A DNA stretch of 40,040 bases from a virus (lineage: Duplodnaviria > Heunggongvirae > Uroviricota > Caudoviricetes): the IMG/VR virus record IMGVR_UViG_2547132278_000009; one strand, written 5' to 3'. Each line of letters starts with the position of its first letter. The stretch's first letter is position 1. The translations under genes and the position numbers were made by a program. The notes beneath the pieces are model-generated. The model worked only from the letters and a program-made list of their open reading frames with translations, did no database searches and had not been told where the DNA came from. This document shows positions 10,483-34,007 of this stretch, piece after piece.

Positions 10483-10556
10483 TGATGGAAAACTCCTTTT
10501 TCCGTTAATTCTACGCATTCATTGCGCTAATAGTAAGTATATACTTACCAATTGAG

Positions 10557-19435: not shown

Positions 19436-19474
19436 AGATCCCTCTAAAACACACAGAGCGCGTCCATGCGCTCT

Positions 19475-19517
19475 AAAACAACTTGTTTACTGCATCTGCT
19501 AACCAACTTGTTTTCTG
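19475..19517 (-). promoter_or_regulatory. Two copies of the palindromic operator family (AAAACAA-N-TTGTTT) upstream of the terminase small subunit gene
   Basis: AAAACAACTTGTTTAC (19475-19490) and AACCAACTTGTTTTCTG (19501-19517), with adjacent inverted repeat AGAGCGC-N6-GCGCTCT. Confidence 0.45.
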
Positions 19518-19630
19518 GGGTGTTTAATTAGATCTGGCATGTCTTACGAAGCCTGCTTCCGTATATATTTAATAAGTTACTTATTATTTATATATATAGA
19601 TGCAGGTCTTTAAATAAGCTCCCAGACCGA

Positions 19631-19897
19631 TTACATCACCAGTAACTTCGCTTTGGCTCGACCTAAAGTGGTTAACCCAAGAGTTCGGCGGTGATAGCGA
19701 TTGTCACTGCGTTGGCGCGTATGCCCTTTCTCCACCAGCCCCTTTTTTATCAGAGCGCGAATTGAGAACTGGATACTTTGCTTGGTTGTCTTGTACGGCA
19801 AAACTTCAAGCAATTCGTCCAGATCAAGTAGATGACCTCGCTCATAACCGAGATTGAGCGTTTTGATTATGTCCTTTTGTTTGTCGGTTAACGTCAT
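19631..19897 (-). CDS. Small basic protein, possibly winged-helix DNA binding
   Basis: 88-aa ORF 9 bp downstream of the GNAT-like gene; basic C-terminus; no firm motif. Confidence 0.35.
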   Translation of the reverse strand: MTLTDKQKDIIKTLNLGYERGHLLDLDELLEVLPYKTTKQSIQFSIRALIKKGLVEKGHTRQRSDNRYHRRTLGLTTLGRAKAKLLVM

Positions 19898-19906
19898 GGC
19901 AAATCC

Positions 19907-20797
19907 TTATGCCGGTAAAGCAATTTCTAACGGTTTATCCAAAGGTTGTTTGTCGAATGCCAGCAGTGGCAGCGTGTCAGGCAGTCGACGGCCAAAGTCA
20001 GGGTTTCGGTACACACCATACAACGGAGACGTAAAGCTCAGGTTGTGAATGTCCTTGAGCAGCTTCACAATGCTGGCCTCGTCCACCAGACTGTCGGCAA
20101 TGTCCTGAATCGTCGTGCCACGATTCCGCCCAGCTTTTGCCAGAGAACTGTTCTTGTGGTAGTCCGCCACCAAATCGCGCAGCGCACGGCGACGACGAGA
20201 CTCGCTCATAGCGAACAACTCTTTGACGATCGCCTCGTTATCACCCGGGTCGGAGCGGAAATGGCGCTGGAACACACGCAGTGCACTTTCATAGCTCTTC
20301 GGTCGCTCAGGGCGGATGAACTTAAACCCTGCTTTCATGGCGAAGGGATTGTATTTGCTCATCGAGGACTGGATCTCAATGATTGGCCGGTCATGCATCC
20401 TGCTAACCAGGTTAATCATTCGATAAGAGACGCCTACGCCACGATACTGAGTATCCACAACTGAGCGACTGATCACCGCAAAGTTGTTATTCACGTACCG
20501 ACCCCAGTACTGGTTAGCCACGGTGGTATTAGTGGTTGGTTTCAACTTAGGAAACATGCGGTGGCGAGGTGCCAACAGTAGTTTCGGGTAAGCCATAACC
20601 ACGACGCCCACCAGACGGTCATCAAGTTCGCAGCGATAGTAAGTTGGCGCGAAAGGTTTGCCGTCTGTTTTGTAGTGAAGCGACTTAAGAGCGTGCCAGT
20701 CCTCTACAGTTCCCTTTGTAACAGTCATTCGCTCCAGAAAGTCCAGATGACGCGGAAACTCTTCAGGGCGGTAGCGTTTAATGATGATGTCCGTCAT
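19907..20797 (-). CDS. GNAT-like acyltransferase-fold protein with extra C-terminal domain (hypothetical)
   Basis: 296 aa; YRGVGVSYRMINLV resembles GNAT motif A (R/Q-x-x-G-x-G/A); start overlaps the ATPase stop by 4 nt. Confidence 0.4.
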   Translation of the reverse strand: MTDIIIKRYRPEEFPRHLDFLERMTVTKGTVEDWHALKSLHYKTDGKPFAPTYYRCELDDRLVGVVVMAYPKLLLAPRHRMFPKLKPTTNTTVANQYWGRYVNNNFAVISRSVVDTQYRGVGVSYRMINLVSRMHDRPIIEIQSSMSKYNPFAMKAGFKFIRPERPKSYESALRVFQRHFRSDPGDNEAIVKELFAMSESRRRRALRDLVADYHKNSSLAKAGRNRGTTIQDIADSLVDEASIVKLLKDIHNLSFTSPLYGVYRNPDFGRRLPDTLPLLAFDKQPLDKPLEIALPA

Positions 20798-21459
20798 GAA
20801 TGGACCTCATCATGACTACCATTGTGATATTCCACCTTCACGCGTTCTTTGTAGTGCTTGGTGATCTGCATATCCGGGCGCAGCGCGTTCTTCAGGTCTT
20901 CGTGAGTCGTCGCCACCATTACCGTCGCACCAACCTTTCGAGCGGCACGCTGGAGGTTAGACGCCACAACCTGAGCGGTTACACGGTCGAGAACAGCGCC
21001 GAACTCGTCAGCAGCCCATACTTTAGCGCCTGACTCAATCAGTTTGGCAATCTTGAGACGATATTTCTGGCCGTCTGACATTTCAGAAGGCTTGCGAACA
21101 AACAGATATGCATCGTTCAGACCAGCCATAGATAACAACCCAAGCGCATCACTGGTCGTTTTGCCCAACTGATCGATGACGTTAACCTCATTATCGAAGG
21201 TAAAATCATCGATGGAGGCTACAGAAAGCCCTTCATCCTTCATCTGGCGTTGCAACTCGCGCAGCACAACGGATTTGCCGGAACCGGATTGGCCGGTGAT
21301 GTACACCACATCGCCCTGCTTCACTTCCAGCTCCAGATTGTCGTAAAGCGTCCACTCTTTTTCGTCCAGGCCAAGCCCGAACGACTCAGCGATTTCCAAC
21401 GTGCGCGTGGTTTTATTTACGCGTGTCTGAAACGATACGTTGATGATGTATTTGCTCAT
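20794..21459 (-). CDS. Minimal ABC-type ATPase (stand-alone nucleotide-binding domain)
   Basis: 221 aa; Walker A GQSGSGKS, signature-like SDGQKYRL, Walker B VWAADEFGAVLD, H-loop ATTHEDL; overlaps both neighbours by 4 nt. Confidence 0.7.
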   Translation of the reverse strand: MSKYIINVSFQTRVNKTTRTLEIAESFGLGLDEKEWTLYDNLELEVKQGDVVYITGQSGSGKSVVLRELQRQMKDEGLSVASIDDFTFDNEVNVIDQLGKTTSDALGLLSMAGLNDAYLFVRKPSEMSDGQKYRLKIAKLIESGAKVWAADEFGAVLDRVTAQVVASNLQRAARKVGATVMVATTHEDLKNALRPDMQITKHYKERVKVEYHNGSHDEVHS

Positions 21460-22124
21460 GCAGCCATCTCCCCGGAAGAGATCTTCTCCGCATATGCCAC
21501 AAATGCGTCTACCCCGCTTTCTCCCGTCATTTCTTCCATGTGGGCAAGCAAATCACCAACAACAATGGCAGAGCCAGCAGGGAGCGTTTTAAAGCCCAAT
21601 ACGTCGACAACACGTACTTCTTCCGCTGCAACTTCACGACTGATCTCGGTGTGTTCATCCTTCTGTCGTTTAGTTTCTTCGCCAAGATCGATAACTAGCG
21701 AATCGGTGTCCATTTCTTCTGTCATACTGCCAACGAGAACATTCAACTCACGCTCTTCAAAGCCGAAAACCTCGATATCGTCCAGAACAAGCGACTCAAG
21801 CTCTTTCTGTAGCTTAATTGCATCGTAATCAATGCTGGCAAGTCGGTTATCTTCAAGGCGCTTCGCACGAACCTCGTCATCACTGAGATCATCGCGAACA
21901 ATAACCGGTACGCGCTCAAGTCCAGCAAAAATTGCAGCCTCACGGCGGCCGTGGCCAGTAATAATTACGTCGTTCTTATCGACCGTAATTGGCTGGTCAA
22001 ATCCGCGCTTTTTAATGGCTGCGGCCAGATCTCGGATCTGCTGTTCATCATGCTTTTTGGCATTCATCTCATAGGGAATAAGATCTGCCGGGTCGCGATA
22101 TACGATTTCAAACTTTTTGGTCAT
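21456..22124 (-). CDS. ParB/Srx-like N-terminal domain protein (second of two)
   Basis: ITGHGRREAAIFAG matches the ParB arginine motif (GxxRxxA); probable start MTKKF overlapping the upstream stop as TAATG. Confidence 0.65.
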   Translation of the reverse strand: MTKKFEIVYRDPADLIPYEMNAKKHDEQQIRDLAAAIKKRGFDQPITVDKNDVIITGHGRREAAIFAGLERVPVIVRDDLSDDEVRAKRLEDNRLASIDYDAIKLQKELESLVLDDIEVFGFEERELNVLVGSMTEEMDTDSLVIDLGEETKRQKDEHTEISREVAAEEVRVVDVLGFKTLPAGSAIVVGDLLAHMEEMTGESGVDAFVAYAEKISSGEMAA

Positions 22125-22822
22125 TACATACGCTCCTTGTAGTAGTCGACCAGCCACACCAGAGCCTCACCAGCGTTCTCCATTTCATTACCGGTGTTAA
22201 TAGCCTGCTCTTTGATGATGTTTTTTATGGTTTCTGCAACACGATCTGACGCATCGAAAGTTACTTTGAAGCGCATGGTCTGATGTTCCGCACCCACACG
22301 TTCGGTTTTCTCTCGTTTGTCGGTATCGACAGGCTCATCACTACCACGAGACAACGCCTCCAGTGCTTCAAGGTCGATTGCCGCCTCTTTTGCTAAAACC
22401 ATCGAGATTTCGTCGTCATACGGGGCGATTTCAGACAGTTGATAGTCAAGTTCTGACTGAATTTCTTCAATGAAGCGTTGCAATGCGATTTGGTCGTCTT
22501 CACCGTATCGCTCGTTGTCCACCAGTGACATCTGTTTAGCTACGACATCGCTAATTTTGCCCACAGAAAGCACCGGAACCGTTGAAATTCCTTGCTCAAT
22601 AGCAGCACGCCAGCGATGTTCGCCGCCGAGGATTTCAAAAAATCCATCTTCAAGTTCACGAGCCAAAATTGGCTTAAAAAAGCCCAATTTTTCGATAGAA
22701 CCTTTCAGTTTTTCAAAATTCTGCGCACCAACCGAATTGGTGTTCCAGGTATTCGGGCGAAGGTTGGCAACATCAACCTGCAAAATCGTGATTTTTACAT
22801 CCATTTTATTGCTACAATCCAC
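22124..22822 (-). CDS. ParB/Srx-like N-terminal domain protein (first of two)
   Basis: ILGGEHRWRAAIEQG matches the ParB arginine motif; first gene of the operon, divergent from the helicase. Confidence 0.7.
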   Translation of the reverse strand: MDCSNKMDVKITILQVDVANLRPNTWNTNSVGAQNFEKLKGSIEKLGFFKPILARELEDGFFEILGGEHRWRAAIEQGISTVPVLSVGKISDVVAKQMSLVDNERYGEDDQIALQRFIEEIQSELDYQLSEIAPYDDEISMVLAKEAAIDLEALEALSRGSDEPVDTDKREKTERVGAEHQTMRFKVTFDASDRVAETIKNIIKEQAINTGNEMENAGEALVWLVDYYKERM

Positions 22823-22840
22823 TAAGTAATCACTTACTTA
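22823..22840. promoter_or_regulatory. Inverted repeat TAAGTAA-TCAC-TTACTTA in the divergent promoter region between the ParB operon and the helicase
   Basis: Read directly; followed by TATTATAAT (-10-like); member of a recurring TAAGTA/TACTTA palindrome family. Confidence 0.4.
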
Positions 22841-22886
22841 TTATAATAGCCAAATAACATACAAAAGGCACTAAGGAAAGAGGTTT

Positions 22887-24446
22887 ATGACTGTTCGGAT
22901 TGTATCTAACGCAGTTAATGCGCTTATTTCTGGCGCAGATGACAAGGTAAAGCAACTGGTGCAACAGATGTTGAGCTACGAAGTCGAGACTGGCGACTGG
23001 AAGGGCACAAGCACGATGTTCAACTGGAGTAAAAACTCGTTCCCTGCTGGCTTTGCCAAGCCTGTAGCGGCGAACTTGAACAAGGCGGGCATCAAATGTG
23101 TTCATATCCGCAAAGACAAAGCCCCGGCGCTTGGAAAGCCAAATCCGGCGGTTAACCCATTCCCATACAATCCTGATTATGCATATCAGGATCAGGCTGT
23201 GGAAACACTAGTTCGCGAGGGAATGATGATTGCCCAGATCGCTACTGGTGGTGGGAAATCTAACGTTGCCTGCAAAGCAGCTGCACGTATCGGTCGAATG
23301 ACATTATTTTTAACAACCCGCTCTGTTCTGATGTTTCAGATGGCCGAAAACTTCCAGAGATCCATCGACTACCGCGCCAAAAATGGCGAACCGTGGTTAA
23401 AAGACCAAAAGGTTGGAGTCATTGGCTCGGGTGAGTTCCAGGTATCGCGACATATCAACGTCGCTACAGTTCAAACTCTTGCAAGTTTCCTCGAAGAACC
23501 ACCACGCGATGCAACACCAGATAAGAAAAGCTACCACCTCAAACGTCGGGAGTTGGTGAAACGCTTCCTTTCAAGTGTCTCTCTTCTTATTCTGGAAGAG
23601 GCGCATGAGTCTTCAGGCTCTAATTTCTATGACATTGCCAGATTATGTGCGAACGCAGACTATCGCCTGGCGCTTACGGCAACGCCGTTCATGAAGGATT
23701 CTACGGAAGCCAACATGCGCCTGATGGCGGTGGCCGGGCGAATTGAAATTAAAGTCACAGAAAAGTACCTGATTGATCGAGGCATTCTGGCAAAGCCGTA
23801 CTTCCTTTATCATAAAGTTGCCTACAAACCAGACGAGGCCAGAATCAAGGCAGAGCTTGCCAACAAACACCTCAATTTTAGAGTAGGTATGAGCACTGCC
23901 TACCAAAAGGCTTATCAGTTGGGGATCGTGTATAATTTGGGACGTAACGAGGCCATTGTGCGCGAGGCATTGCTTTATAAGCAACATTCACTCAACTGCA
24001 TGACTCTGGTTCGTCTTAAACGCCACGGGCAAATCCTGATGGAGATGATGAAGGAGTCAGGTCTTAAAGTTGATTTCATCTATGGGGAATCTAACCAGAC
24101 GACAAGGCAAGCAAAGCTGAATAGTTTAGCGTCTGGTGAAATAGATGTTTTAATAGGCTCGACTATTCTGGATGTTGGTGTTGATGTGCCAAGCGTTGGT
24201 GCGGTCATTCTTGCTGGTGGTGGGAAAGCAGAAGTTGAAATGAGACAGCGTGTCGGTCGTGGCTTACGAGCCAAAAAAAATCAGGCAAACGTGTGTTTTA
24301 TCACTGATTTCATTGACATTAGCAACAAATACCTGTTGTCTCACTCTTATGAGCGAAAACACATCATCGACACCACACCTGGCTTTGCAGAAGGTGTATT
24401 GCCTATTGATGGAGCATTCGATTTTGGAGTTCTGAAACGAGATTAG
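22887..24446 (+). CDS. Superfamily-2 DEAD/DEAH-type helicase
   Basis: 519 aa; motif I AQIATGGGKSNVA, motif II LILEEAHE, motif III LTATP, motif VI QRVGRGLR; AAGGA RBS upstream. Confidence 0.85.
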   Translation: MTVRIVSNAVNALISGADDKVKQLVQQMLSYEVETGDWKGTSTMFNWSKNSFPAGFAKPVAANLNKAGIKCVHIRKDKAPALGKPNPAVNPFPYNPDYAYQDQAVETLVREGMMIAQIATGGGKSNVACKAAARIGRMTLFLTTRSVLMFQMAENFQRSIDYRAKNGEPWLKDQKVGVIGSGEFQVSRHINVATVQTLASFLEEPPRDATPDKKSYHLKRRELVKRFLSSVSLLILEEAHESSGSNFYDIARLCANADYRLALTATPFMKDSTEANMRLMAVAGRIEIKVTEKYLIDRGILAKPYFLYHKVAYKPDEARIKAELANKHLNFRVGMSTAYQKAYQLGIVYNLGRNEAIVREALLYKQHSLNCMTLVRLKRHGQILMEMMKESGLKVDFIYGESNQTTRQAKLNSLASGEIDVLIGSTILDVGVDVPSVGAVILAGGGKAEVEMRQRVGRGLRAKKNQANVCFITDFIDISNKYLLSHSYERKHIIDTTPGFAEGVLPIDGAFDFGVLKRD

Positions 24447-24448
24447 TT

Positions 24449-24727
24449 ATGAGTGAAAAGAAAACAACTTACTGTCAGGTAGCATTGTCTGATAAGGCCA
24501 ATGACAAACTTGGAAAGTTTCAAGTGAAACTAAAAGAAAAAAATATCAAAATGTCTAAGGCTGAAGTCATAAATACCATTCTGGAACAATTGACAATGGC
24601 CGACTTTGACAAGGTTATATCTTCTGTCGGGGCTTCCGCTAAGACTCGTGAGAAAATCATGCGTATCTATGAGAACTCTAATATGACAAAGGAAGATCTC
24701 GAAACGCTATTAAGCAGATTAAAATAA
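24449..24727 (+). CDS. Hypothetical protein (92 aa)
   Basis: ORF starting 3 nt after the helicase stop; lysine-rich; no motif recognised. Confidence 0.45.
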   Translation: MSEKKTTYCQVALSDKANDKLGKFQVKLKEKNIKMSKAEVINTILEQLTMADFDKVISSVGASAKTREKIMRIYENSNMTKEDLETLLSRLK

Positions 24728-24795
24728 TCACGCTATCAATTAGGGAGACAAAGATGAAGTCTCCCATACTGTTCACTTTCTGTTCTAAAACTATC

Positions 24796-25218
24796 ATGAA
24801 ATACTCGCTTCTCCCTCTACTAACGTTACCAGTGTTGATGCTTACCGCGTGCCAATCACGCCCAATATCAATCCATGACGCCAAACCAGCACCGCAGGCC
24901 AAAGTGTTCAAGTATCAAAGCGCAGCGCCAGCTACGTTGGTGGTAATGAGAGACACAGGTTTTGTAGGAGCTGGATGTGATGCTTCCATTTTCATCAACG
25001 GCGAAACTGTCGCAAAACTGGCTACAGGCGAAAAAGCGACTTTCCATTTAAATGCCGGAGAATTAATTGTGGGTGCATCTCTTGAAGGTGCAGGTTTATG
25101 TGCTCTAAACCCCGCTCGTCAAGAGCGAGAAACGACTCTGAAGAATGGAGACACAAAAGCGTTCAGGGTGTTCACCAGCAATTCTGGTGACATCGACATT
25201 CTGCCAACAACTCTGTGA
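24796..25218 (+). CDS. Putative lipoprotein
   Basis: ORF 24754..25218; signal peptide MKYSLLPLLTLPVLMLTAC with lipobox L-T-A-C; preceded by GGGAGA RBS. Confidence 0.55.
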   Translation: MKYSLLPLLTLPVLMLTACQSRPISIHDAKPAPQAKVFKYQSAAPATLVVMRDTGFVGAGCDASIFINGETVAKLATGEKATFHLNAGELIVGASLEGAGLCALNPARQERETTLKNGDTKAFRVFTSNSGDIDILPTTL

Positions 25219-25747
25219 TGACATGACAACCAAAGATATTACCTACGGTATCCAAGCTGAACTCTGGCCGCGAGATTACACTAACGTTGAAAAACTACTG
25301 ATGTTCTGGCGCAGAGAACAAATTCCTGTAAGGGTCACTCTCGAAGATGGCCAGGCGTTTTGCATGTACGTTTATGGCCTCATGCCATCTCGTAACAAAG
25401 TTGACCTTTGCCCAGCCCCTTTTGACAAAGAAAATCGTATAAGGCTCCCACTTGAACGCATTAGTACAATTGAATCAGGTGTGGTTGACAGTATCGCTCA
25501 CGATTTCAAAGGTCGACTAACAGTTCACCCTGATTATGTCGATAATCGGCCATCACGCCGCGATTTTTTTGCAATTTGCAACCAAGCCTACAAAGCAAAC
25601 AAATCTATAAGGGTGTACATGGCGGATGGCCGTGAAATTGAGGGGGTGTCAGCAGGCGCAGATGCTTGTCAGGTTACACTACGTGTCGAGAACGGTAGAA
25701 AAATAGTTGTTTTGTTCGATTGGGTTGAACGAATTTTGCCTTTTTGA
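25214..25747 (+). CDS. Hypothetical protein with apparent internal duplication
   Basis: ORF 25145..25747; likely start MTTKDITYG overlapping the lipoprotein stop; two similar segments (IPVRVTLEDGQAFCMYVYG / IRVYMADGREIEGVSAG). Confidence 0.45.
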   Translation, partial: CDDMTTKDITYGIQAELWPRDYTNVEKLLMFWRREQIPVRVTLEDGQAFCMYVYGLMPSRNKVDLCPAPFDKENRIRLPLERISTIESGVVDSIAHDFKGRLTVHPDYVDNRPSRRDFFAICNQAYKANKSIRVYMADGREIEGVSAGADACQVTLRVENGRKIVVLFDWVERILPF

Positions 25748-25750
25748 GTT

Positions 25751-26059
25751 ATGAAATCGATATTGTTACCACCATTATTTTTACTTTGCTCAGTTGCGGC
25801 AAATGCAATGGACTATAAGCCTGTCATTCAGTCGCTGATGAATGACGTGTGCTCAACGTCTCAGAATGTATCAGTTTGCATGTATCAATTTTCGGCAGCC
25901 GTAAAAGCAGGAAAAGCGATAGGTGAGAATGTGGAACTGTGTAAGAAAGTGGCAAATGAAGAACGGGCAATGTTGGATTGCGAATCTAGCGAGTCATCGG
26001 CACAGTTCGTTGATGCGCTATTTGACACCAATCGTAAGGCTGTAGAGTCTGTTCAATAA
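25751..26059 (+). CDS. Small secreted/periplasmic protein with signal peptide
   Basis: MKSILLPPLFLLCSVAANA signal-like N-terminus; several cysteines; followed by terminator. Confidence 0.5.
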   Translation: MKSILLPPLFLLCSVAANAMDYKPVIQSLMNDVCSTSQNVSVCMYQFSAAVKAGKAIGENVELCKKVANEERAMLDCESSESSAQFVDALFDTNRKAVESVQ

Positions 26060-26071
26060 ATCTATAAGGTT

Positions 26072-26101
26072 AATAACCGGCTAAGTCCGGTTATTATTTT
26101 T
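26072..26101 (+). terminator. Rho-independent terminator
   Basis: AACCGG-CTAAGT-CCGGTT followed by ATTATTTTT. Confidence 0.65.
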
Positions 26102-26249
26102 CACATCACTTCTTTATATCTACAAATCAAATAACCTAAATATATATAAGGTCTAAAGCCGCAATCGATTATTTATTTAGGGAACACCTTCGACGATCTC
26201 GCTTTTATTTCTAGGACTTTCATCCCTGCAAAAAATTTAAAAAAAACAC

Positions 26250-26278
26250 TTGCAATCTTTTTTCGCGTATCGATAATT
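26250..26278 (+). promoter_or_regulatory. Sigma70-like promoter for the AT-rich three-gene operon
   Basis: TTGCAA (-35), 16-17 bp spacer, GATAAT/ATAATT (-10), about 60 nt upstream of the ATG at 26343. Confidence 0.5.
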
Positions 26279-26342
26279 GAACTCGTCGAAAGCGAAGACG
26301 CTAACGACAATAAATTTTAAATTTACATAAGGAAAAATTATC

Positions 26343-26993
26343 ATGGCTAACATTATCATTTCTAAAAAATCCATCATTGAAGCTGCATCTATTGTATCCG
26401 ATGAACTGCGCGAAAAAGCAGATCTGGCAACTCAAACATATAACGAACATTATAAAAATGGTACGCACACTAAAGCAGACAAAGCAAATATGCAAGCTGC
26501 GACCACTAAACTTGCTTACTTCATCAACAACGTCGTAAACGCAGTAGAAGACGAAAAATTATGCTCTGTTTTCTACTATGCGATTAAAGCAAGCAAACAA
26601 GCGCCAGAAGTATTTTTCCGTGATGCAATGACTAATAGTTATTCTCTGGAAAAACTGGTTTATCTGGTTAAATCAATTAAATCTGGTAAATGCGTTTATT
26701 CCATCGCTGATATGTCAGGATCTCGTGTATTCGCTTTAATCGATATGATTAACGACGAGATCGACACGTTCACCAATGGCGCTGTTTTCGATTTAATGAA
26801 TGAAGCTAAAAAAGCGTGTGAAATTAAATTGGACGCTGGCTATACTCAAGCCAACCAGTTGATCAATCTTTGCGAACGTCTTGGACTTGTTGAAAAAGTC
26901 AAAGGAGCTGGGAGCGCGAAAGCTGGTACTCAGCAATATCGCTTCATTAAAAATGATTTCTACAATTATTTAGCTGATGCTTTCAAAGCGTAA
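26343..26993 (+). CDS. Hypothetical protein (216 aa), first gene of AT-rich operon
   Basis: ORF with AT-rich codon usage unlike flanking phage genes; GGAAAAA RBS-like; no motif recognised. Confidence 0.6.
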   Translation: MANIIISKKSIIEAASIVSDELREKADLATQTYNEHYKNGTHTKADKANMQAATTKLAYFINNVVNAVEDEKLCSVFYYAIKASKQAPEVFFRDAMTNSYSLEKLVYLVKSIKSGKCVYSIADMSGSRVFALIDMINDEIDTFTNGAVFDLMNEAKKACEIKLDAGYTQANQLINLCERLGLVEKVKGAGSAKAGTQQYRFIKNDFYNYLADAFKA

Positions 26994-27005
26994 TTAATGG
27001 AATCA

Positions 27006-27024
27006 AGCGCCCACTATGGGCGCT
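27006..27024 (+). other. Intra-operon stem-loop AGCGCCCA-CTA-TGGGCGCT (copy 1)
   Basis: Exact copy of the hairpin also found at 27503-27521; here followed by an AGGAG RBS rather than a T-run. Confidence 0.55.
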
Positions 27025-27041
27025 TTAAAGGAGCTTTAAAA

Positions 27042-27245
27042 ATGGTCAGCTATGACAAGATCCGCGCGGAATATCGCGCAAAGTATCGCGCTTATAAACT
27101 GGAATTAATCGATGATTTAATCGCGCAACGCGACCAATTAAATTTTACGTTTTCTGATTTGCTTAACAGCAAGCGAGATTGCAAGCGCAAACGTGAATAC
27201 TTACGTTTAAGCGCATTAATCGGAAAACTTCAAAATTCTATTTAA
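27042..27245 (+). CDS. Hypothetical small basic protein (67 aa)
   Basis: ORF 26997..27245; start at 27042 preferred because of AAAGGAG RBS 8 nt upstream; rich in K/R. Confidence 0.5.
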   Translation: MVSYDKIRAEYRAKYRAYKLELIDDLIAQRDQLNFTFSDLLNSKRDCKRKREYLRLSALIGKLQNSI

Positions 27246-27266
27246 TTTTTTTTAAGGAGCTTAATC

Positions 27267-27497
27267 ATGTTTGTTCTTATCGCTGGCGTTAACGTCCATA
27301 ATGAATATTATGTTAATCGCATCGCTGGGATCGCTGGTTACGCTGGGCGCGCAGTCGAGCTTATAGATGAAACGACGCGCAAAATTGACTTATTGAGCGA
27401 CCAGGAGCGAAAAAAAGCAGACGTGAACGACGCTGATATATTTTTAATGCTAAAAGCGTTTGTAGAAATGGGATTTAAAATCAGTTTACACAAATAA
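27267..27497 (+). CDS. Hypothetical small protein (76 aa)
   Basis: ORF preceded by TAAGGAGC RBS, followed by two terminators. Confidence 0.5.
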   Translation: MFVLIAGVNVHNEYYVNRIAGIAGYAGRAVELIDETTRKIDLLSDQERKKADVNDADIFLMLKAFVEMGFKISLHK

Positions 27498-27502
27498 AAT
27501 CG

Positions 27503-27530
27503 AGCGCCCACTATGGGCGCTTTTTTCGTT
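27503..27530 (+). terminator. Rho-independent terminator (hairpin copy 2 plus T6)
   Basis: AGCGCCCA-CTA-TGGGCGCT followed by TTTTTTCG. Confidence 0.7.
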
Positions 27531-27547
27531 TCCAATACTCCCACCAT

Positions 27548-27577
27548 AACGCGCCAATGATGGCGCGTTTTTTATTG
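27548..27577 (+). terminator. Second tandem rho-independent terminator
   Basis: GCGCCA-ATGATG-GCGCG followed by TTTTTTATT. Confidence 0.6.
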
Positions 27578-27986
27578 TCTTTGATTCACTCCAACAACAT
27601 AAAAACAAGCGCCAAAATAACGCCATAGACGCACTTTTATATCCTTACCAGTACATACCCATTACTTAACACATTAACGCGCTTAAAACGCGTTATATTG
27701 CGCTATAGCGCATAATTAATCATTGGCTTTTAGTCTTGCTATGTGATCCGCGTTTAATTGTCGGCGCGGATCGGCATTTTGTTTTGTTCCGTATCCGCTC
27801 GCGTATTATGTGCGCGTGATTTTCACATAATCACACCACTTAATCACGTATGTGATTATGCTACGAAAGAAATCTGGATGTCTCAGGCGACGAAAGTCAT
27901 CATAATTTTCCCCGCTCACCTGTCCGACAACCGCTGGTTGGATTCCACCAGCTTCCCGATGTTTTTTCTACATAAAGGCGAATGCA

Positions 27987-28099
27987 GCCGTTTCCCGAAA
28001 AAATCCTGGCCGTTTCCCGTCGGCTCATGAATACGTTCCTCGCCGTTTCTGAAAATTTCCCTGCGGCAGCTGGTGTCTATAGAGAAAGGGCCGTTTCTG
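27987..28099. repeat. Iteron-like direct repeat array A (GCCGTTTCC/GCCGTTTCTG, 4 copies)
   Basis: GCCGTTTCCC at 27987 and 28009 (22 bp apart), GCCGTTTCTG at 28042 and 28090. Confidence 0.6.
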
Positions 28100-28112
28100 G
28101 CCCTCTTCTCAG

Positions 28113-28595
28113 TTACACGCCATCAAGGATGTGGATGCGGTTGCTTGCGTATACATTCAGCATAAAGTTAGCGCAAAACAGTTTCCATGTATCAACGCCA
28201 GCGGCATACGTAATGTTTTTGCATTTTATTGCATTGTTGGCGATCCGCATCCCCTGTGATACTGCTTCATCGTCGGAAAATTTGAACGACGATTGAGTTT
28301 TAATCCAGACAGAAATCTGCGTAGCGAACTCAATCAGCTTGGACTGGCAGAATCGCCCGGAGCGCACCGGAAAGACGAACGTTCCGAATCCAGAATTTAC
28401 CACATACGCTTTCTCAAATACCCGCGAGTAACGACGATTGCCAATGATGTCGCGTGCAATAATGCATTTTTCTTGTGCTGACAGTTCTACCGTCTCATTG
28501 TCGCGCCATGCACCAAGTACTCGTTTTTCAATGTCAGAGAACGTTACAGCGATATTGCCATGTGCGGGTGCGTTTACAGTAGCGATAAAATTCAT
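28113..28595 (-). CDS. Hypothetical protein (160 aa)
   Basis: ORF with GGAAT RBS-like and the palindromic operator 20-40 bp upstream; no motif recognised. Confidence 0.5.
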   Translation of the reverse strand: MNFIATVNAPAHGNIAVTFSDIEKRVLGAWRDNETVELSAQEKCIIARDIIGNRRYSRVFEKAYVVNSGFGTFVFPVRSGRFCQSKLIEFATQISVWIKTQSSFKFSDDEAVSQGMRIANNAIKCKNITYAAGVDTWKLFCANFMLNVYASNRIHILDGV

Positions 28596-28612
28596 GATTA
28601 ATTCCTTATCGT

Positions 28613-28632
28613 AAATAACAAATTGTTTTCTT
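28613..28632 (-). promoter_or_regulatory. Palindromic operator copy (AACAAATTGTT core) upstream of the 160-aa gene
   Basis: AATAACAAATTGTTTTCTTG read directly; flanking TTAATTAACACCAACAAG block is shared with the site at 31143. Confidence 0.45.
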
Positions 28633-28797
28633 GTTGGTGTTAATTATCGTTGTACGAATAAGGCGTCAAAGTGGAAAGTTGCGGTAGCCGGACGGGAACA
28701 GGTGGGTTTGTCGGTTGCCTGGAGGTAAGAGGTTGGTGTTATTAGCCTGAGGGAAACAGGATGGTCATTTAAGACCACCAATGCTGGTGGCCTTAAT

Positions 28798-28943
28798 AAT
28801 TATCGCACGATTACGCTAAGGATCTTTTCCTCAACTGATTTGTTGTTGCGACTAAACTGCCTTGCGTATCTGATGACAGAAGAGGCGTTTTGCTTTCTGA
28901 CCATCTCGGCTCTTTCCTTCAGGCGTTTCTTGAAATCGCCCAT
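28798..28943 (-). CDS. Possible small basic protein (48 aa), below the ORF-track cutoff
   Basis: Hand translation MGDFKKRLKERAEMVRKQNASSVIRYARQFSRNNKSVEEKILSVIVR; ATG 2 nt after the upstream stop with GGTGG upstream. Confidence 0.3.
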
Positions 28944-28945
28944 AT

Positions 28946-29320
28946 TTACCACCAGGCGCAGAAGGTCAGTCTGTTATTGTGAAAGTCGTGGTTCTTAATC
29001 AGGTCTTCCACAAGCTCTTTCAACTGCCCCACATCATGCCAGTAACCTTCATCGTACTCCTGACTGCCGAAGAAAAAACCTTCCCGGGTAGGCAAGTACT
29101 CTTCGCAATTACTTTCGTTTATGTGCATCAAATGAGCCTTCAGAAAACAAATGTCATTCATCGTTAATTCTAAAAGCTCACAATTTTCGACTTCACCTAC
29201 GTTGCGCTCCATCCACCCAACGAGCGCATTGAACTTACGGAAGTAAGCAACCTGCTTTCTGGATGCCTCGTTATTCAGATCGTTTTTAGGCTGTGTCTCG
29301 ATATAGATATCAAGTCCCAT
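28946..29320 (-). CDS. Hypothetical acidic protein (about 124 aa)
   Basis: ORF 28946..29362; probable start MGLDIYIETQ; operator copy and hairpin upstream. Confidence 0.5.
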   Translation of the reverse strand: MGLDIYIETQPKNDLNNEASRKQVAYFRKFNALVGWMERNVGEVENCELLELTMNDICFLKAHLMHINESNCEEYLPTREGFFFGSQEYDEGYWHDVGQLKELVEDLIKNHDFHNNRLTFCAWW

Positions 29321-29375
29321 GATGGTTTCCTTATTAACTTGCTTCAGTGAAATCATTTTCACAAATCAGATAAGG

Positions 29376-29395
29376 CAGAAAACAAATTGTTATCG
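29376..29395 (-). promoter_or_regulatory. Palindromic operator copy upstream of the acidic 124-aa gene
   Basis: CAGAAAACAAATTGTTATCG; adjacent hairpin GGCGCG-N6-GCGCC likely terminator of the upstream gene. Confidence 0.45.
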
Positions 29396-29437
29396 GGCTT
29401 AATAAAATGGCGCGGTTTACGCGCCATTTAAAGAGGA

Positions 29438-29833
29438 TTAAGCGAATACGCTTTCAGGGATTAAGGTGTCGGCAGGAATGCCAGAGGTAATGCGCAGGCC
29501 GTACTGACCAATCCAGGTAGTGTTGGTATTCAGGCTGGAGGCGAATACGGTGTTAACCATATTCATCATGGTTTCAAACACCTCTTCATCAACCTGGCGG
29601 AAGTAGTTCTCGATTTTCAGCAGCAGCGGGTCAGTTGCATCGAGAATGGACTGGTATTGAGTCGCGTACTCGCCGCCGGAGGCATCACCTTTACGCACGA
29701 TCGTACTGGCCTGGACTTCGGCACCAGTTTCGGTGTTGTACGTAACAACGGTGATTTTTGCCACATTCTTACCTTCGGCGGTTTCAGAGGCATAGTAAAC
29801 ATCAACTGTCAGTTTTTCGCGTTTAACGGTCAT
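29438..29833 (-). CDS. Hypothetical protein (131 aa)
   Basis: ORF with GGAGAGTG RBS-like sequence upstream; no motif recognised. Confidence 0.5.
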   Translation of the reverse strand: MTVKREKLTVDVYYASETAEGKNVAKITVVTYNTETGAEVQASTIVRKGDASGGEYATQYQSILDATDPLLLKIENYFRQVDEEVFETMMNMVNTVFASSLNTNTTWIGQYGLRITSGIPADTLIPESVFA

Positions 29834-29959
29834 TTCACTCTCCGTAGTGTATTGGTTATTTTTCTATTCTATGATCGTAAGTATGTACTTACAATACAAA
29901 AAAGCCCCGTAAGGATGGCGGGGCTGTCGTACTGTCGACTAATTGCCACTTGCACATTA

Positions 29960-30271
29960 TCAGGCTATTGCCATCACTGATGCTCTCTGAATCTCTTGCT
30001 GGGCCACGCGGTTAACTTCCATCAAAGCCAGTTCGAGCTGATGTTCCGGCCACATTCTTTGAAATGCCACCCAGCCTTTTCCACGCTGGCGACGAACATT
30101 CATTACATAACGAGTAAAGGTGTTTTTATCGAAAGACACCGCTGTTTCACGGAACAGACGAATAGAGGTTCCATTGGCAACGATGTCCAGCAAAGTTAAT
30201 TGAGCAACCAGCGCAGGCTTCTCTTTTCTCTTCTGGTCTTTGTCCAGACCAAGAACCAATGATTTTTTCAT
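29960..30271 (-). CDS. Hypothetical basic protein (103 aa), possible DNA-binding protein
   Basis: ORF 29960..30301; start MKKSLVLG at 30271 with GGAG RBS; K/R-rich. Confidence 0.5.
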   Translation of the reverse strand: MKKSLVLGLDKDQKRKEKPALVAQLTLLDIVANGTSIRLFRETAVSFDKNTFTRYVMNVRRQRGKGWVAFQRMWPEHQLELALMEVNRVAQQEIQRASVMAIA

Positions 30272-30280
30272 TACAACTCC

Positions 30281-30299
30281 GTAAACAACTTGTTTTCTC
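30281..30299 (-). promoter_or_regulatory. Palindromic operator copy (GAAAACAA-G-TTGTTTAC) in the 5' leader of the basic-protein gene
   Basis: Read directly; lies within a ~60-bp module duplicated at 30765-30840. Confidence 0.5.
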
Positions 30300-30424
30300 A
30301 ATGGCGTAAATAATACCAGTAAGAAAACGGCTACAAAGCATATTGATCAGGCGCATGAGCGATATGCAGGTTCTTCCCTGCGGCTATAGAGAAATTAAGC
30401 CAGCAATGCTGGCTTTGGTTGGGG

Positions 30425-30754
30425 TTACTCGAATACTTCAAGAAACTCCTGAACGTCCCAATGCTGGACAAGGTGAAGATAGACCTTAGAAATAACGTCA
30501 TTCTCGCTATCGCATGTGAAGTAGAACTTCTGGCTGCGGTTGTATGTGTCCACACAAAATTCGCTCATATCCATAAAGTCAGCATCATCACCCAGGTCGC
30601 AAATCATCAAAGCAGGAGCATCATCACGAGTCATCAGCTCAAGCACCCAGCGCGAATTGATCAGCGTGGAAGACCAACCTTCTAACTCATAAAACTGGTC
30701 AAACTCTTTTTGAGTCATTTTCTTGATTTGGTTGATGTCGATATTTGCAAACAT
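30425..30754 (-). CDS. Hypothetical acidic protein (about 109 aa)
   Basis: ORF 30425..30820; start MFANIDINQ at 30754 with AAGGAT RBS; net acidic, D/E-rich. Confidence 0.5.
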   Translation of the reverse strand: MFANIDINQIKKMTQKEFDQFYELEGWSSTLINSRWVLELMTRDDAPALMICDLGDDADFMDMSEFCVDTYNRSQKFYFTCDSENDVISKVYLHLVQHWDVQEFLEVFE

Positions 30755-30764
30755 AACGCAATCC

Positions 30765-30783
30765 TTAAACATGTTGTTTTCTG
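30765..30783 (-). promoter_or_regulatory. Palindromic operator copy (GAAAACAA-C-ATGTTTAA) upstream of the acidic 109-aa gene
   Basis: Read directly; part of duplicated promoter module. Confidence 0.5.
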
Positions 30784-30892
30784 AATTGCGTAAACAATAC
30801 CAGTAAGAAAACGGCCACAAAGTATATCGTTACGGTGCTGCGCTGCCCGGAGGTTAATAGCGACAAAAGCCACCGTGCTGGTGGCCTCACTC

Positions 30893-31111
30893 TTAATCTT
30901 CGTCGCCCGGGAACTCGCTGTGTACCGCGTCCACCAGCTCCCGCTTTTCATCTTCACTCAGCAGGTGCCAGATATCCTTCCCTTTGGGCGATTCCCCTTC
31001 TGCCGGGACGAACGACCACAACTTGCGGTACAACTCCGGCCCCACTGCATCCAGACACTCAGCCAGGGATTCCACGCCCCACACCTCAACCGTCACAGGC
31101 ATCTTAATCAT
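30893..31111 (-). CDS. Hypothetical small acidic protein (72 aa)
   Basis: ORF with GAGGATGAAGAG RBS-like leader; acidic C-terminus EFPGDED. Confidence 0.45.
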   Translation of the reverse strand: MIKMPVTVEVWGVESLAECLDAVGPELYRKLWSFVPAEGESPKGKDIWHLLSEDEKRELVDAVHSEFPGDED

Positions 31112-31142
31112 CTCTTCATCCTCACTTCGTTTATATAACGTC

Positions 31143-31159
31143 TAAACATGTTGTTTACT
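31143..31159 (-). promoter_or_regulatory. Palindromic operator copy upstream of the 72-aa gene
   Basis: TAAACATGTTGTTTACT with the same flanking TTAATAACACCAACAAG block as the site at 28613. Confidence 0.45.
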
Positions 31160-31491
31160 TGTTGGTGTTATTAACGCAATAAGACAAAGGCGAAAAAGGA
31201 TTTTATTCCGGTGAATGTGGTTTTGGCAGTGAGTTTTCAGGTTCAGTACCGAGTACACTTTTTACATTATTCTGATTTAGTGGCCGAAAGTGGCTGGTGG
31301 CAGAGTAATCCTCTCCCCAAAAACCTACTGAAATCGATTGTGCCCCGTTGGCTGTCTGGCACAATTACGCTGTAGCTGGGCATTCAGAGGGAATCCAGCG
31401 GTAAGCAAGCCCGCCTACGTGAGCGCCTCTCTTCTTCCCGCACATTACAGGTGGGTAGCCGCAACTCTCCCTCTCGCTATACCGGTACGCC

Positions 31492-31622
31492 GCCGTTCCT
31501 GAACCGGCATCGAGCCTTTTCCCGAAATCCACACAGGCAACTCGACCGTTTCCCTGAAAATCCCCAGCCGTTCCCCGAAGGCAACCCAGCCGTTTCTGTA
31601 GCGGGATGCAACCTTTTCCCTG
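31492..31622. repeat. Iteron-like direct repeat array B (6 copies of G/A-CCGTTTCC-type units at about 22-bp spacing)
   Basis: Units begin at about 31492, 31514, 31545, 31567, 31589, 31610; several followed by GAAA. Confidence 0.65.
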
Positions 31623-31699
31623 TATGGACCGAAGACTGACCGTAGGGGTGTTACGGGGGGATAAAATCAGGAGTTGAATAAATACGAAAAAGGAGGCGA

Positions 31700-32600
31700 C
31701 ACCCCTCCTTCCCTCCCCACTTATACATACCTGGCTTCTTCGCTATACATGTTGTGTTTTATCTGTCTCAACCTCTCTATAGGCGTTAATGCTCACTCCT
31801 TCCAGAATGTTCTATACGGCGACTATTTCTGTTGGTGAATTGGGTGTGTTGTTTTCTCTGTCGGTGTATGTGGTTTCGTTCGTTTTGCGGTGGTTCTTCT
31901 ATGGGGTGTTCTCGTCGTTTTGGTGATTGTTCTTCTCCGTGTATGGAGTAATGGCAGGTGGGCGATTGCTTTCGTTATTGTGTTTGAGTTGTTTGTCTGG
32001 AGTGTGTGAAAGGCTTTTGTAGTTATTCGTGTATTGGGTAATGGCGTTTCCCGTGATTGTTATGTTTCGTGTCTTTTGGGATTGAGAGAAACCTTGCGGT
32101 TATAGGCTTCGTTGGGTTTTCAGTGATTCTGGTGTTTCTTCGCTGTTTGGGGAATGGCGTGTCGTGGGTATTGCGCGTATGAATGTTTTCGGATTGCCTG
32201 TGAAAGTTAGGTTGGCTGTCCGGTAGCCTGGGGAGAAGAGGTGGGTCTTTTCGGTAGCCTGCCATAAAGAGGTTGGTTGTTTTTGGGAATGGCATTTGTG
32301 TTATTTAGTTGTTTTGTTATGCCTGAAAATAAGTTGTTTATATGGTTGTGTAACGCAACGGGAGCGATTTTGAGCGTGTGTTTTTGTTGGTAGTGTGTTG
32401 GGTCGTCTGTGGTGAAAATTGGACGCTGTGGCGCTGTCTGCTGCGTAGAATTACGGGTATAAGAAGTGATGTGTGAAAACGTCAATTTTTTAGACCAAAT
32501 CGGGTGAAAGCGTTGATGTTTCGTTGATCTGTTATTCAGTTGTTTTCTTGATTGTATAAACAACTATAACTTATTGATATTTAAGGATGTGATTGCGGGT
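31700..32600. other. About 0.9 kb ORF-free tract with extreme G+T richness on the plus strand
   Basis: Long runs of G/T-only words; recurring GG(G/T)AATGGC units near 31951, 32037, 32143, 32287; only low-complexity ORFs. Confidence 0.6.
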
Positions 32601-32682
32601 ATGGAAAGGGAGTAGTGGCGATCAACGGATTCTTATAGAAAAGAATCAAATTGTGACCGCCATTATCAATGAGTTGCAACCG

Positions 32683-33252
32683 TTAGTTGTTCAGATAAAC
32701 ATTTGGAACACGGACGTAGAAGTTCCTGTCGCCGGTAAGTTCCAGAGTAATGTTAATGTCATTACCATTGTCTAGTGTAGCCGTTGCTCTATAGAACTTA
32801 TCCGTCACCTTGTCCTCTATTGTCACCTTCATACATTTTGGTGCAGTCGAACCGTTATTCTCTTTCAGAATAGTTGTCACGAGAGGGCAGGCTGCTTCTT
32901 CAAGAGCAACCTCGTCCTTGTGTGGGATGCCGATGAAGATAATCCAAGCCAGCGACGCAACGATTATGATAAATGGCACTCTGCTGCCTTTTGTAATAGT
33001 CGCGCGCTTCCAGAGATAGACAGGCAGGAGGAATACCCCCCATAGAATTGAAGGTGGTTCACAGCCAGACTCCGATAGAGCCATTCTGTCAGCTACTAAC
33101 AAACCGATGGTAGTTACACCCCCAATTATAATAGCGTAATTGGTATACTCTTCCGGCGATACTCCAAAGAAGAAAGGCATGAACGCTAGAATCCACGCAT
33201 AAATGTTATTCAGAGGTTTTGTTTGTTGGTTCTGGGTTTCCATCACATCCAT
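32683..33252 (-). CDS. Membrane protein (about 3-4 predicted transmembrane helices plus C-terminal soluble domain)
   Basis: 189 aa; hydrophobic segments IYAWILAFMPFFFG, AIIIGGVTTIGLLV, ILWGVFLLPVYLW, FIIIVASLAWIIFIGI. Confidence 0.55.
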   Translation of the reverse strand: MDVMETQNQQTKPLNNIYAWILAFMPFFFGVSPEEYTNYAIIIGGVTTIGLLVADRMALSESGCEPPSILWGVFLLPVYLWKRATITKGSRVPFIIIVASLAWIIFIGIPHKDEVALEEAACPLVTTILKENNGSTAPKCMKVTIEDKVTDKFYRATATLDNGNDINITLELTGDRNFYVRVPNVYLNN

Positions 33253-33404
33253 TCCATCACATAAAAATCGCGTTTATATATTATCAATTTTCTCACTTGT
33301 ATAACCTAAATACGCATCCGTTTATCAATTCACCTTCCACAAACATCAGCTTTAGCTATGAAAAATAACAATCTCAAAGTGAAAACCATTATCATAGGAA
33401 ACGA

Positions 33405-33590
33405 TTAGATGAGATGGTCTAATTCATCATCTATCATTGCTTTAACACTTGAGTCATTAACCCCGTATTGATTTATGAACCGTTTCAGCTCCGGTGAAAA
33501 CTGAAGGTAGATATCGTGAGCGTTTTTCACTGTAGGTTCAACGCCACGCATTTCAAGCGCCTTTAGTAGATATGAGTCTTCTTTAAGCAT
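33405..33590 (-). CDS. Hypothetical small protein (61 aa)
   Basis: ORF downstream of the 102-aa gene, likely co-transcribed. Confidence 0.4.
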   Translation of the reverse strand: MLKEDSYLLKALEMRGVEPTVKNAHDIYLQFSPELKRFINQYGVNDSSVKAMIDDELDHLI

Positions 33591-33626
33591 AAATTCTCCG
33601 TTGTCTAGTATGAAGCGATTGCCGGA

Positions 33627-33935
33627 TTACCATTGCCAGCACTCTAGCCCTTCAACGACCGGTGCACCACAATCAAAATGTACAGAGTCAAAGCCTACAT
33701 CAAGTACTTTCTGAATGTTAGCAATCGCGCCTTCGGATATACCATATCGACGCAAGTCCTCTTTCCAGACATCATCCTGTAACCCGGCGTGGACAATACA
33801 ACCGCCGTCAATTTGTGAAACCCAATCCAGCTCATTGCTTGCGATCATGAATCGGCGAGCATCTTCCTCTGATGTATGAGATGAACTGATCAATGCCACC
33901 TGGTAGGCTTGGGTAATGTTCAACATTTCAACCAC
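33627..33935 (-). CDS. Hypothetical acidic protein (102 aa)
   Basis: ORF preceded by two operator copies; acidic composition. Confidence 0.5.
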   Translation of the reverse strand: MVEMLNITQAYQVALISSSHTSEEDARRFMIASNELDWVSQIDGGCIVHAGLQDDVWKEDLRRYGISEGAIANIQKVLDVGFDSVHFDCGAPVVEGLECWQW

Positions 33936-33937
33936 TC

Positions 33938-34007
33938 CAAAACAATTTGTTTTCTTATGTGGCTTATTATCTCAATCAACAAAAGGTAGAAAACAAATTG
34001 TTTTAGG
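33938..34007 (-). promoter_or_regulatory. Two perfect or near-perfect copies of the 17-bp palindromic operator
   Basis: CAAAACAATTTGTTTTC (33938-33954) and GAAAACAAATTGTTTTA (33991-34007), just downstream of the metG terminator. Confidence 0.5.

Follow-up and report, generated by a model that had tools for sequence, protein, structure and literature searches.

Circuits in which one repressor acts at many dispersed operators are familiar from phages and plasmids. Here, we compare the best-described of these circuits with a family of palindromic sites found in a 40,040-nucleotide stretch of viral DNA (IMG/VR record IMGVR_UViG_2547132278_000009; the whole stretch is hereafter called the window). 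Between 17 and 36 kb, the window matches the Escherichia phage-plasmids CMS-2020a, PhiR41_1, and Cyrano (pLF82) at 96-98% identity and, in parts only, Salmonella phage SSU5 and Klebsiella relatives at about 80%. On the basis of these matches and the gene layout of annotated relatives, the window is part of an extrachromosomal SSU5-like phage-plasmid, and an integrated prophage is ruled out. The palindromes are an element-specific operator family within a conserved promoter cassette, in which they take two positions, called O1 (past a −10-like element) and O2 (over the predicted −35 position). Most likely, to judge from the sequences compared here, they define a global repressor regulon of SSU5-like phage-plasmids.

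A close analogy is provided by the C1 operators of P1, in which the site for one repressor is dispersed over the promoters of lytic, replication, and accessory genes of a phage-plasmid of about 100 kb. The P1 operators are asymmetric 17-mers, and their reader, C1, is a large monomer. In contrast, the SSU5-like site is a true palindrome with two fixed promoter positions. The KorB and KorA regulons of the IncP plasmid RK2 are similar in another way: palindromic operators lie at a dozen promoters of one replicon, those of the partition genes included, either at about −40 or near the start site. The likeness to KorB extends to gene content, since two ParB_N proteins are encoded beside the terminase operator pair described below. 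The operator sequence, however, is a different one, the ParB-like genes are silent in the lysogen and are also present in relatives that lack the palindrome, and the putative DNA-reading strand of the ParA partner is nearly unchanged in one such relative. In mycobacteriophage L5 (Cluster A), roughly 20-30 gp71 stoperators occupy short intergenic gaps genome-wide. Many lie downstream of promoters and can block transcription; they are asymmetric 13-mers with one working orientation, whereas the SSU5-like sites are symmetric and phased with promoters.

Two further systems share architecture rather than operators. In the promoter-early stem-loop (PeSL) cassettes of T4-type phages, a terminator hairpin and a conserved promoter are repeated before small accessory ORFs (open reading frames) in a plastic region. 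PeSL cassettes carry no operator palindrome; in the SSU5-like elements, modules of PeSL-type architecture, composed of hairpin, palindrome, and promoter, recur before small ORFs. Finally, the Salmonella FljA/fliC leader invites comparison, as the window encodes a clear FljA-family protein and the place of O1 is in the 5′ leader, immediately ahead of the ribosome-binding site. The fliC leader, however, lacks the motif, and the O2 copies lie outside the leader. By sequence and by binder, the operator family appears to fall outside the P1 C1, KorA/KorB, L5, and PeSL systems.

Palindromic sites in the window

The motif, GAAAACAA-N-TTGTTTTC, has ten strong copies in the window. Matches to GAAAACAANTTGTTTTC with at most three mismatches number 11 versus 0.44 expected, and 0 of 100 shuffled sequences reached 11; the core AACAANTTGTT, with at most one mismatch, gives 11 matches versus 2.3 expected. 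Scores from a symmetrized position weight matrix (PWM) built from nine sites are bimodal: ten sites score 17-25 bits, and none falls between 14.4 and 17 bits. These ten sites start at 19474, 19499, 28614, 29378, 30281, 30765, 31142, 32325, 33938, and 33989. All ten are intergenic, though 80% of the region from 17.0 to 36.1 kb is coding. An earlier note on this DNA, made from the sequence alone, had reported a palindrome family at ten or more sites, and both the family and the coordinates given for it, which are correct to within 1-2 nt, stand. That note described a 17-bp palindrome; the 17-bp site does recur, but its true symmetry extends over only 13 bp, AAACAA-N-TTGTTT, and the outer G/C is mostly one-sided, on the promoter-proximal side. 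The pattern matches at 24460 and 25698 lie within ORFs, have low PWM scores, and are probably chance occurrences. The match at 24460 overlaps codons 3-9 of a gene for a 92-amino-acid protein, and the counterpart in relatives scores higher.

Two copies precede the small-terminase gene (18803-19435, minus strand), as had been proposed. The promoter-proximal copy (19499-19515; 19.9 bits) reads GAAAACAAGTTGGTTAG on the minus strand, on which a −10-like TAATTA (19525-19530) precedes it, and it is conserved in SSU5, in PhiR41_1, and in at least 40 IMG/VR loci. The second copy (19474-19490; 23.6 bits) lies 25 bp away, centre to centre. Between this second operator and the terminase ribosome-binding site, a terminator scan identified a stable hairpin with a T-tract (19454-19475, minus strand; RNA fold −13 kcal/mol, z = −3.1). 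The hairpin resembles a terminator or attenuator and may attenuate or stabilize the late transcript. At the matching position of the terminase leader, the Klebsiella element KpPF25 has a different hairpin that lacks a T-tract.

The remaining eight sites accompany minus-strand transcription units. The first, an O1 (28614-28630; 20.1 bits), lies 18 nt before the ATG of a 160-amino-acid gene (28113-28595), and GATAAT (28643-28648) ends 13 nt upstream of it. The gene for a 124-amino-acid protein (28946-29320) has an O2-type site (29378-29394; 23.5 bits) immediately after a terminator hairpin and 17 nt upstream of a −10-like GAAAAT (29355-29360). The highest score in the window, 25.3 bits, belongs to the O1 (30281-30297) of the gene for a 103-amino-acid basic protein (29960-30271); this site is 9 nt from the ATG, touches the GGAG, and follows TATTAT (30310-30315). 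The promoter of the 109-amino-acid gene (30425-30754), with an O1 at 30765-30781 (20.6 bits; 10 nt to the ATG), is paralogous to the one at 30281. The 72-amino-acid gene (30893-31111) has an O1 at 31142-31158 (20.0 bits; 30 nt to the ATG), upstream of which TTAATAACACCAACAA agrees with the cassette consensus. The DUF5983 gene (33627-33926) has both positions filled: O1 (33938-33954; 24.1 bits) lies 11 nt from the ATG and follows GATAAT (33966-33971), and O2 (33989-34005; 24.4 bits) lies 51 bp upstream of O1, centre to centre, over the predicted −35 position. The earlier note had assigned seven sites to seven small genes. These sites are real, but they mark six transcription units, as 33938 and 33989 lie on either side of a single promoter, and an eighth, weaker site at 32325 had been missed.

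That weaker site (32325-32341; 17.3 bits), whose SSU5 orthologue at 90738 scores 24.9 bits, heads an A/C-rich stretch of about 590 nt (about 32420-31830, minus strand; A 42%, C 33%, G 11%, T 14%) that contains no credible ORF. The stretch begins just past the site and ends at a strong intrinsic terminator (31687-31713), and the orthologous SSU5 site is trailed by the same A/C-rich, G/T-poor composition. The stretch is probably non-coding, and it may specify a long unstructured non-coding RNA; an Rfam search of it gave no match.

Distribution of the family

Whole-genome PWM scans found 21 strong sites in SSU5 and 18 in PhiR41_1. The SSU5 sites lie upstream of the small terminase, parA, dnaB-like helicase, cobT-like, nrdB, anti-repressor-like, and DNA methylase genes and of many small ORFs. 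The earlier note had envisioned one dimeric regulator that coordinates packaging and accessory genes. A single operator-like family is indeed present at the terminase operon and the small-gene promoters, but the predicted regulon is larger and would cover the whole genome of about 105 kb, with about 20 transcription units.

Related elements carry the same operator family. Among 46 IMG/VR loci, it occurs at syntenic places and the motif is invariant; thus, co-variation of motif and regulator is uninformative there. In the divergent Klebsiella lineage KpPF25 p2, 40 kb contain 14 sites, and its parA and helicase genes have sites as well. The motif is enriched in the element and does not occur at similar density in the host chromosome: a scan of 150 kb (about 3%) of the E. 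coli K-12 chromosome found no site of 16 bits or more, versus ten in the 40-kb window. A host regulon small enough to be missed in such a sample may exist.

Two distant but syntenic relatives mark the limit of the family. The Pectobacterium plasmid Drgb1, scanned in full, and one 40-kb locus of the Moellerella plasmid pW1-b have no palindrome, no other enriched dyad, and no enriched arrangement of half-sites. Both keep the promoter core ...CCTTTT...ATAAT.ACATCAATAAGAAAA... and an older leader consensus, CAATAAGAAAA, which the left half-site of O1 overlaps. In O1, the left arm thus coincides in part with a leader consensus that is presumably ancestral. The full palindrome is characteristic of the Enterobacteriaceae clade.

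Anatomy of the promoter cassette

When sites are oriented by the downstream gene, they fall at two fixed positions in a repeated promoter cassette of about 70 bp. The cassette runs, in order, from the terminator of the previous gene through O2, gCCTTTT, about 10 nt, GATAAT, AACACCAACAA, O1, and the ribosome-binding site to the ATG. O1 reads GAAAACAAnTTGTTTAA and starts 10-13 nt past a −10-like hexamer (GATAAT, TATTAT, or TAATTA), from which the conserved AACACCAACAA tract separates it; 9-38 nt lie between its end and the start codon, and it frequently abuts the GGAG. O2 has the mirror asymmetry, TTAAACAAnTTGTTTTC, and lies exactly 17 nt upstream of the same hexamer, over the predicted −35 position, often with the terminator hairpin of the preceding gene directly before it. 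When 25 promoters are aligned on the palindrome, a −10-like block emerges: T at −12 relative to the site is present in 25 of 25, and positions −1 and 0 are almost always A and G, respectively.

A promoter can have O1 alone, O2 alone, or both; in the last case, the distance between them is exactly 51 bp. Across loci, neighbouring sites are spaced by 51 bp, as seen 52 times, or by the 25 bp of the terminase pair, as seen 26 times, and other distances hardly ever occur. Most E. coli and SSU5 promoters have only O1; in KpPF25, O2 is the main or only copy at many promoters. At the terminase leader, both sites are downstream of the −10-like element.

The sequence variation among sites indicates what kind of molecule reads them. 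We collected 76 distinct 17-mers (425 instances). In these, conservation covers half-site positions 3-8 and 10-15, and any base can occupy the centre (A22/G21/T18/C15); at the six core pairs that these positions form, every deviation is one-sided and none is compensatory. RNA hairpins folded from the site have energies of −0.7 to −3.8 kcal/mol, within the shuffled range. An RNA or cruciform hairpin is thereby ruled out, and searches for known RNA families and tandem repeats found none. Because changes are one-sided, the centre is free, and hairpins are no better than shuffled ones, the pattern points to base-specific reading of two half-sites on duplex DNA, as by a symmetric DNA-binding dimer, and not to a hairpin. 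Furthermore, O2 lies upstream of the −10 element and therefore has no leader-RNA role for the gene it precedes.

Repression and its alternatives

We consider it probable, though by a fair distance short of certain, that the palindromes are DNA operators and that one symmetric repressor, a dimer or tetramer whose gene most likely lies on the phage-plasmid itself, reads them. The positions of the sites fit repression. If transcription starts about 7 nt past the −10-like hexamer, as we infer, O1 would extend from about +5 to +21, with its centre at about +13, comparable to lac O1, and O2 would extend from about −46 to −30, with its centre at about −38. The 51-bp distance between O1 and O2 approximates five helical turns and could permit cooperative binding or a small loop that encloses the site of RNA polymerase. 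The notion is that operator occupancy would jointly shut off about 20 transcription units: the terminase/late operon, with its two sites 25 bp apart, replication, nucleotide metabolism, parA, and the single-gene accessory cassettes.

Lysogen expression data are available from the LF82/Cyrano lysogen, in which the background median is 9.8 (PMC9928086, supplement). There, most genes headed by the motif stay at background level (terminase 7, nrdB 13, cobT-like 8, small cassette genes 5-25), which is compatible with repression. The transcriptome does not discriminate, however, because most phage lytic genes are silent irrespective of the motif.

Several points weigh against repression by one dedicated protein. 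The assignment of O1 and O2 depends on a predicted −10 element, and a scan for consensus sigma-70 promoters did not call the cassette promoters, owing to their poor −35 hexamers; a weak −35 element is more usual at activator-dependent promoters. The overlap of O1 with CAATAAGAAAA means that part of the apparent conservation stems from the promoter and leader and not from the operator. None of the candidate binders discussed below combines a suitable fold, expression, and phyletic pattern. Moreover, two motif-bearing promoters are active in the lysogen, those of parA (about 50) and of a umuD-like gene (about 148), in data whose background is about 10 (PMC9928086).

An alternative that we regard as unlikely is that a host transcription factor specific to Enterobacteriaceae reads the palindrome, by which the phage-plasmid would tie about 20 promoters to host physiology. 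In favour of such a factor, all palindrome-bearing elements live in Enterobacteriaceae, apart from pMT1 of Yersinia pestis, which we take to be a recent import, and the two palindrome-less relatives reside in Pectobacteriaceae and Morganellaceae hosts; the lack of a clean element-encoded candidate points the same way. The empty 150-kb sample of K-12 chromosome argues against a host factor, as does a density of 20 sites per 100 kb, which is usual for self-encoded global regulators, and we know of no E. coli regulator with this consensus.

Action at the RNA level is less likely still. Here, O1 in the 5′ leader would be bound by the FljA-family protein, or by Hfq on an (AAN)n-like tract, CCAACAAGAAAACAA, to repress translation. 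Every palindrome-bearing element encodes an FljA-family protein, that protein has weak Sm/Hfq-like matches, O1 adjoins the ribosome-binding site, and FljA-type relatives stop translation of fliC mRNA (PMC2652032). RNA-level action, however, does not account for O2, which is upstream of the −10 element and the predominant or sole copy at many KpPF25 promoters. The strict dyad, the 51-bp phasing, and the lack of both covariation and a stable hairpin fit duplex DNA instead, and fliC leaders are free of the motif, with a best score of 3.4 bits in Salmonella and Citrobacter and no site in E. coli.

We give a similarly low chance to an activator, that is, to an early phage-plasmid protein that binds O2 at about −38, in a Class II-like arrangement, and replaces the missing −35 element to turn on the cassettes in lytic growth. 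The poor −35 hexamers, the placement of O2 over the −35 position, the silence of most cassette genes in lysogens, and a lysogen-silent winged-helix gene just upstream of the late operon are all in keeping with activation. Most E. coli and SSU5 promoters, though, have only O1, which lies past the −10 element, where activation is not expected, and both terminase-leader sites likewise lie past the −10-like element.

Least likely of all, the repeats could be mainly a mobile, PeSL-like promoter/terminator cassette that shuffles accessory genes, with the palindrome as a passenger or recombination feature: the cassettes are paralogous (about 82% identity over 57 nt) and related plasmids differ by whole single-gene units with their own cassette, but conservation is much stronger in the palindrome core than in its flanks, the core is identical between lineages whose flanks and genes have diverged, and the one indel junction examined lies outside the palindrome. 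Mobile cassettes and repressor operators can coexist. One pair of closely related plasmids differs by a 457-bp unit that consists of one small gene and its operator-promoter cassette (13540-13553 in one locus versus 13595-14053 in the other), with a 14-bp overlap at the junction. This arrangement suggests that whole cassette-gene units are gained and lost.

Candidate regulators

If a repressor encoded by the phage-plasmid reads the palindrome, several of its small proteins are candidates, which we judged by fold, expression, and phyletic pattern. We rank the 103-amino-acid protein about level with the FljA-family protein, then the 88-amino-acid winged-helix protein, and then the 92-amino-acid protein. 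That one of the first two is the reader is a tentative proposal, with the odds against it. Both appear to track the motif phyletically and are candidate DNA binders only.

The 103-amino-acid basic protein (29960-30271, minus strand; isoelectric point 10.5) is present in all palindrome-bearing lineages checked, at 52-63% identity, and was not found in palindrome-less Drgb1 or the Moellerella locus. It is near-universal in the family (746 plasmid records), and the leader of its own gene bears the best-scoring operator in the window. Autoregulated repressors often have an operator on their own leader. The earlier note had named this protein as a possible binder; it does follow the palindrome, but it has no Pfam, PHROG-function, or NCBIfam assignment and no recognizable DNA-binding domain.

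The FljA-family protein (Flag1_repress; 25226-25747, plus strand) is identified by Pfam (E = 2.5e-84) and by PHROG 1444, "transcriptional repressor". Its KpPF25 counterpart has 36% identity, with a well-conserved C-terminal Sm-like half, and those of the palindrome-less relatives have 25-30%. In the LF82 data set, its mRNA is about 8- to 16-fold up in non-LB conditions (PMC9928086). The SSU5-like phage-plasmids examined encode this protein, which matched 835 plasmid records; searches with each marker protein returned about 750-835 PLSDB plasmid records. FljA-type proteins block translation of fliC mRNA (PMC2652032), and a link to FljA by way of the fliC leader is ruled out by the motif-free leaders of E. 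coli, Salmonella, and Citrobacter.

The 88-amino-acid protein (19631-19897, minus strand) is confidently modelled as a winged helix (AlphaFold predicted local distance difference test score of 83), and Foldseek matches to the model are MarR/MepR/F-93-like, including small archaeal and viral winged-helix proteins. This protein had also been put forward as a binder, and its fold is suitable. However, its recognition helix, TTKQS(I/M)QFS(I/L)RALI, is unchanged in both palindrome-less relatives, and its mRNA in the lysogen is at background (7.8 versus the median of 9.8; PMC9928086).

The gene for the 92-amino-acid protein (24449-24727, plus strand) runs opposite to the lytic genes and is expressed in the lysogen (CYRAN_117; 114 versus 9.8; PMC9928086). 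The monomer model of the protein is poor. By eye, the protein resembles a ribbon-helix-helix protein; hhalign comparisons with Arc, Mnt, and CopG were not significant, with a weak CopG match at E = 0.04. Identity is 34% in KpPF25, which has an identical motif, and also 34% in Moellerella, which has none, so divergence of this protein does not appear to follow the motif. Searches of PDB sequences with three of the candidates returned nothing useful.

Other proteins were set aside. SSU5, with its 21 sites, lacks the CYRAN_45-type helix-turn-helix repressor and integrase module, and palindrome-less Drgb1 has it. The ParB-like proteins are disfavoured, as their counterparts in Drgb1 and Moellerella, both palindrome-less, are 46-71% identical and the lysogen leaves the genes for them silent. 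The ParA partner, considered as an omega/ParG-like regulator, is likewise disfavoured: Drgb1, which lacks the palindrome, has the putative ribbon strand, IKSRTMSLEDE, in almost the same form, and the ribbon-helix-helix assignment of the partner is a weak Pfam match only.

Genomic surroundings

The gene layout around the sites follows that of annotated relatives. A conserved minus-strand operon directly upstream of the terminase operon (19631-22822) encodes the two ParB_N proteins, two ABC ATPases, and the 88-amino-acid winged-helix protein; in the lysogen, this operon is silent (PMC9928086). A helicase operon in the opposite orientation follows (22887-27497, plus strand). From 28.1 to 34 kb, a row of small minus-strand genes precedes a full-length methionyl-tRNA synthetase gene (34088-36121, minus strand), whose downstream neighbour is a plus-strand gene for a MinD/Mrp-like ATPase. 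Of the two, the Cyrano lysogen expresses the ATPase gene (about 92) but not the synthetase gene (16; PMC9928086).

Directly after the 88-amino-acid gene, at about 19560-19600, lies an AT-rich inverted repeat of about 35 bp, TATATATAAATAATAAGTAACTTATTAAATATATA. Both ends of the linear SSU5 record fall inside the counterpart of this repeat, and the linear Cyrano record ends nearby. A packaging site or terminus is one possibility for the repeat, and a bidirectional terminator is another. Separately, palindrome-less Drgb1 encodes its own Hfq (10310-10531), just upstream of its dnaB-like helicase gene.

Significance

In E. coli, Klebsiella, Salmonella, and Enterobacter, one meets phage-plasmids of the SSU5/pHCM2/pMT1 type very commonly, and they can carry resistance and virulence genes. 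To our knowledge, control of their lysis–lysogeny decision and of their maintenance is essentially uncharacterized, and the literature searches that we made returned no account of these operators for SSU5-like elements. The type of circuit is a known one; for SSU5-like phage-plasmids, it is new. One conserved operator at about 20 promoters delimits a regulon, predicts which genes switch together, and provides bait for the master regulator. The operator also supplies a simple signature by which the SSU5-like family and its accessory-gene cassettes can be recognized in assemblies.

The identity of the reader would give the circuit further meaning. If the FljA-family protein reads the palindrome, a family known only for post-transcriptional repression of flagellin would include a global regulator of about 20 promoters or leaders in phage-plasmids, and Salmonella FljA could be a domesticated phage-plasmid regulator. 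If the 103-amino-acid protein does so, a new small DNA-binding fold would govern lysis and maintenance of a very common plasmid-prophage family of Enterobacteriaceae.

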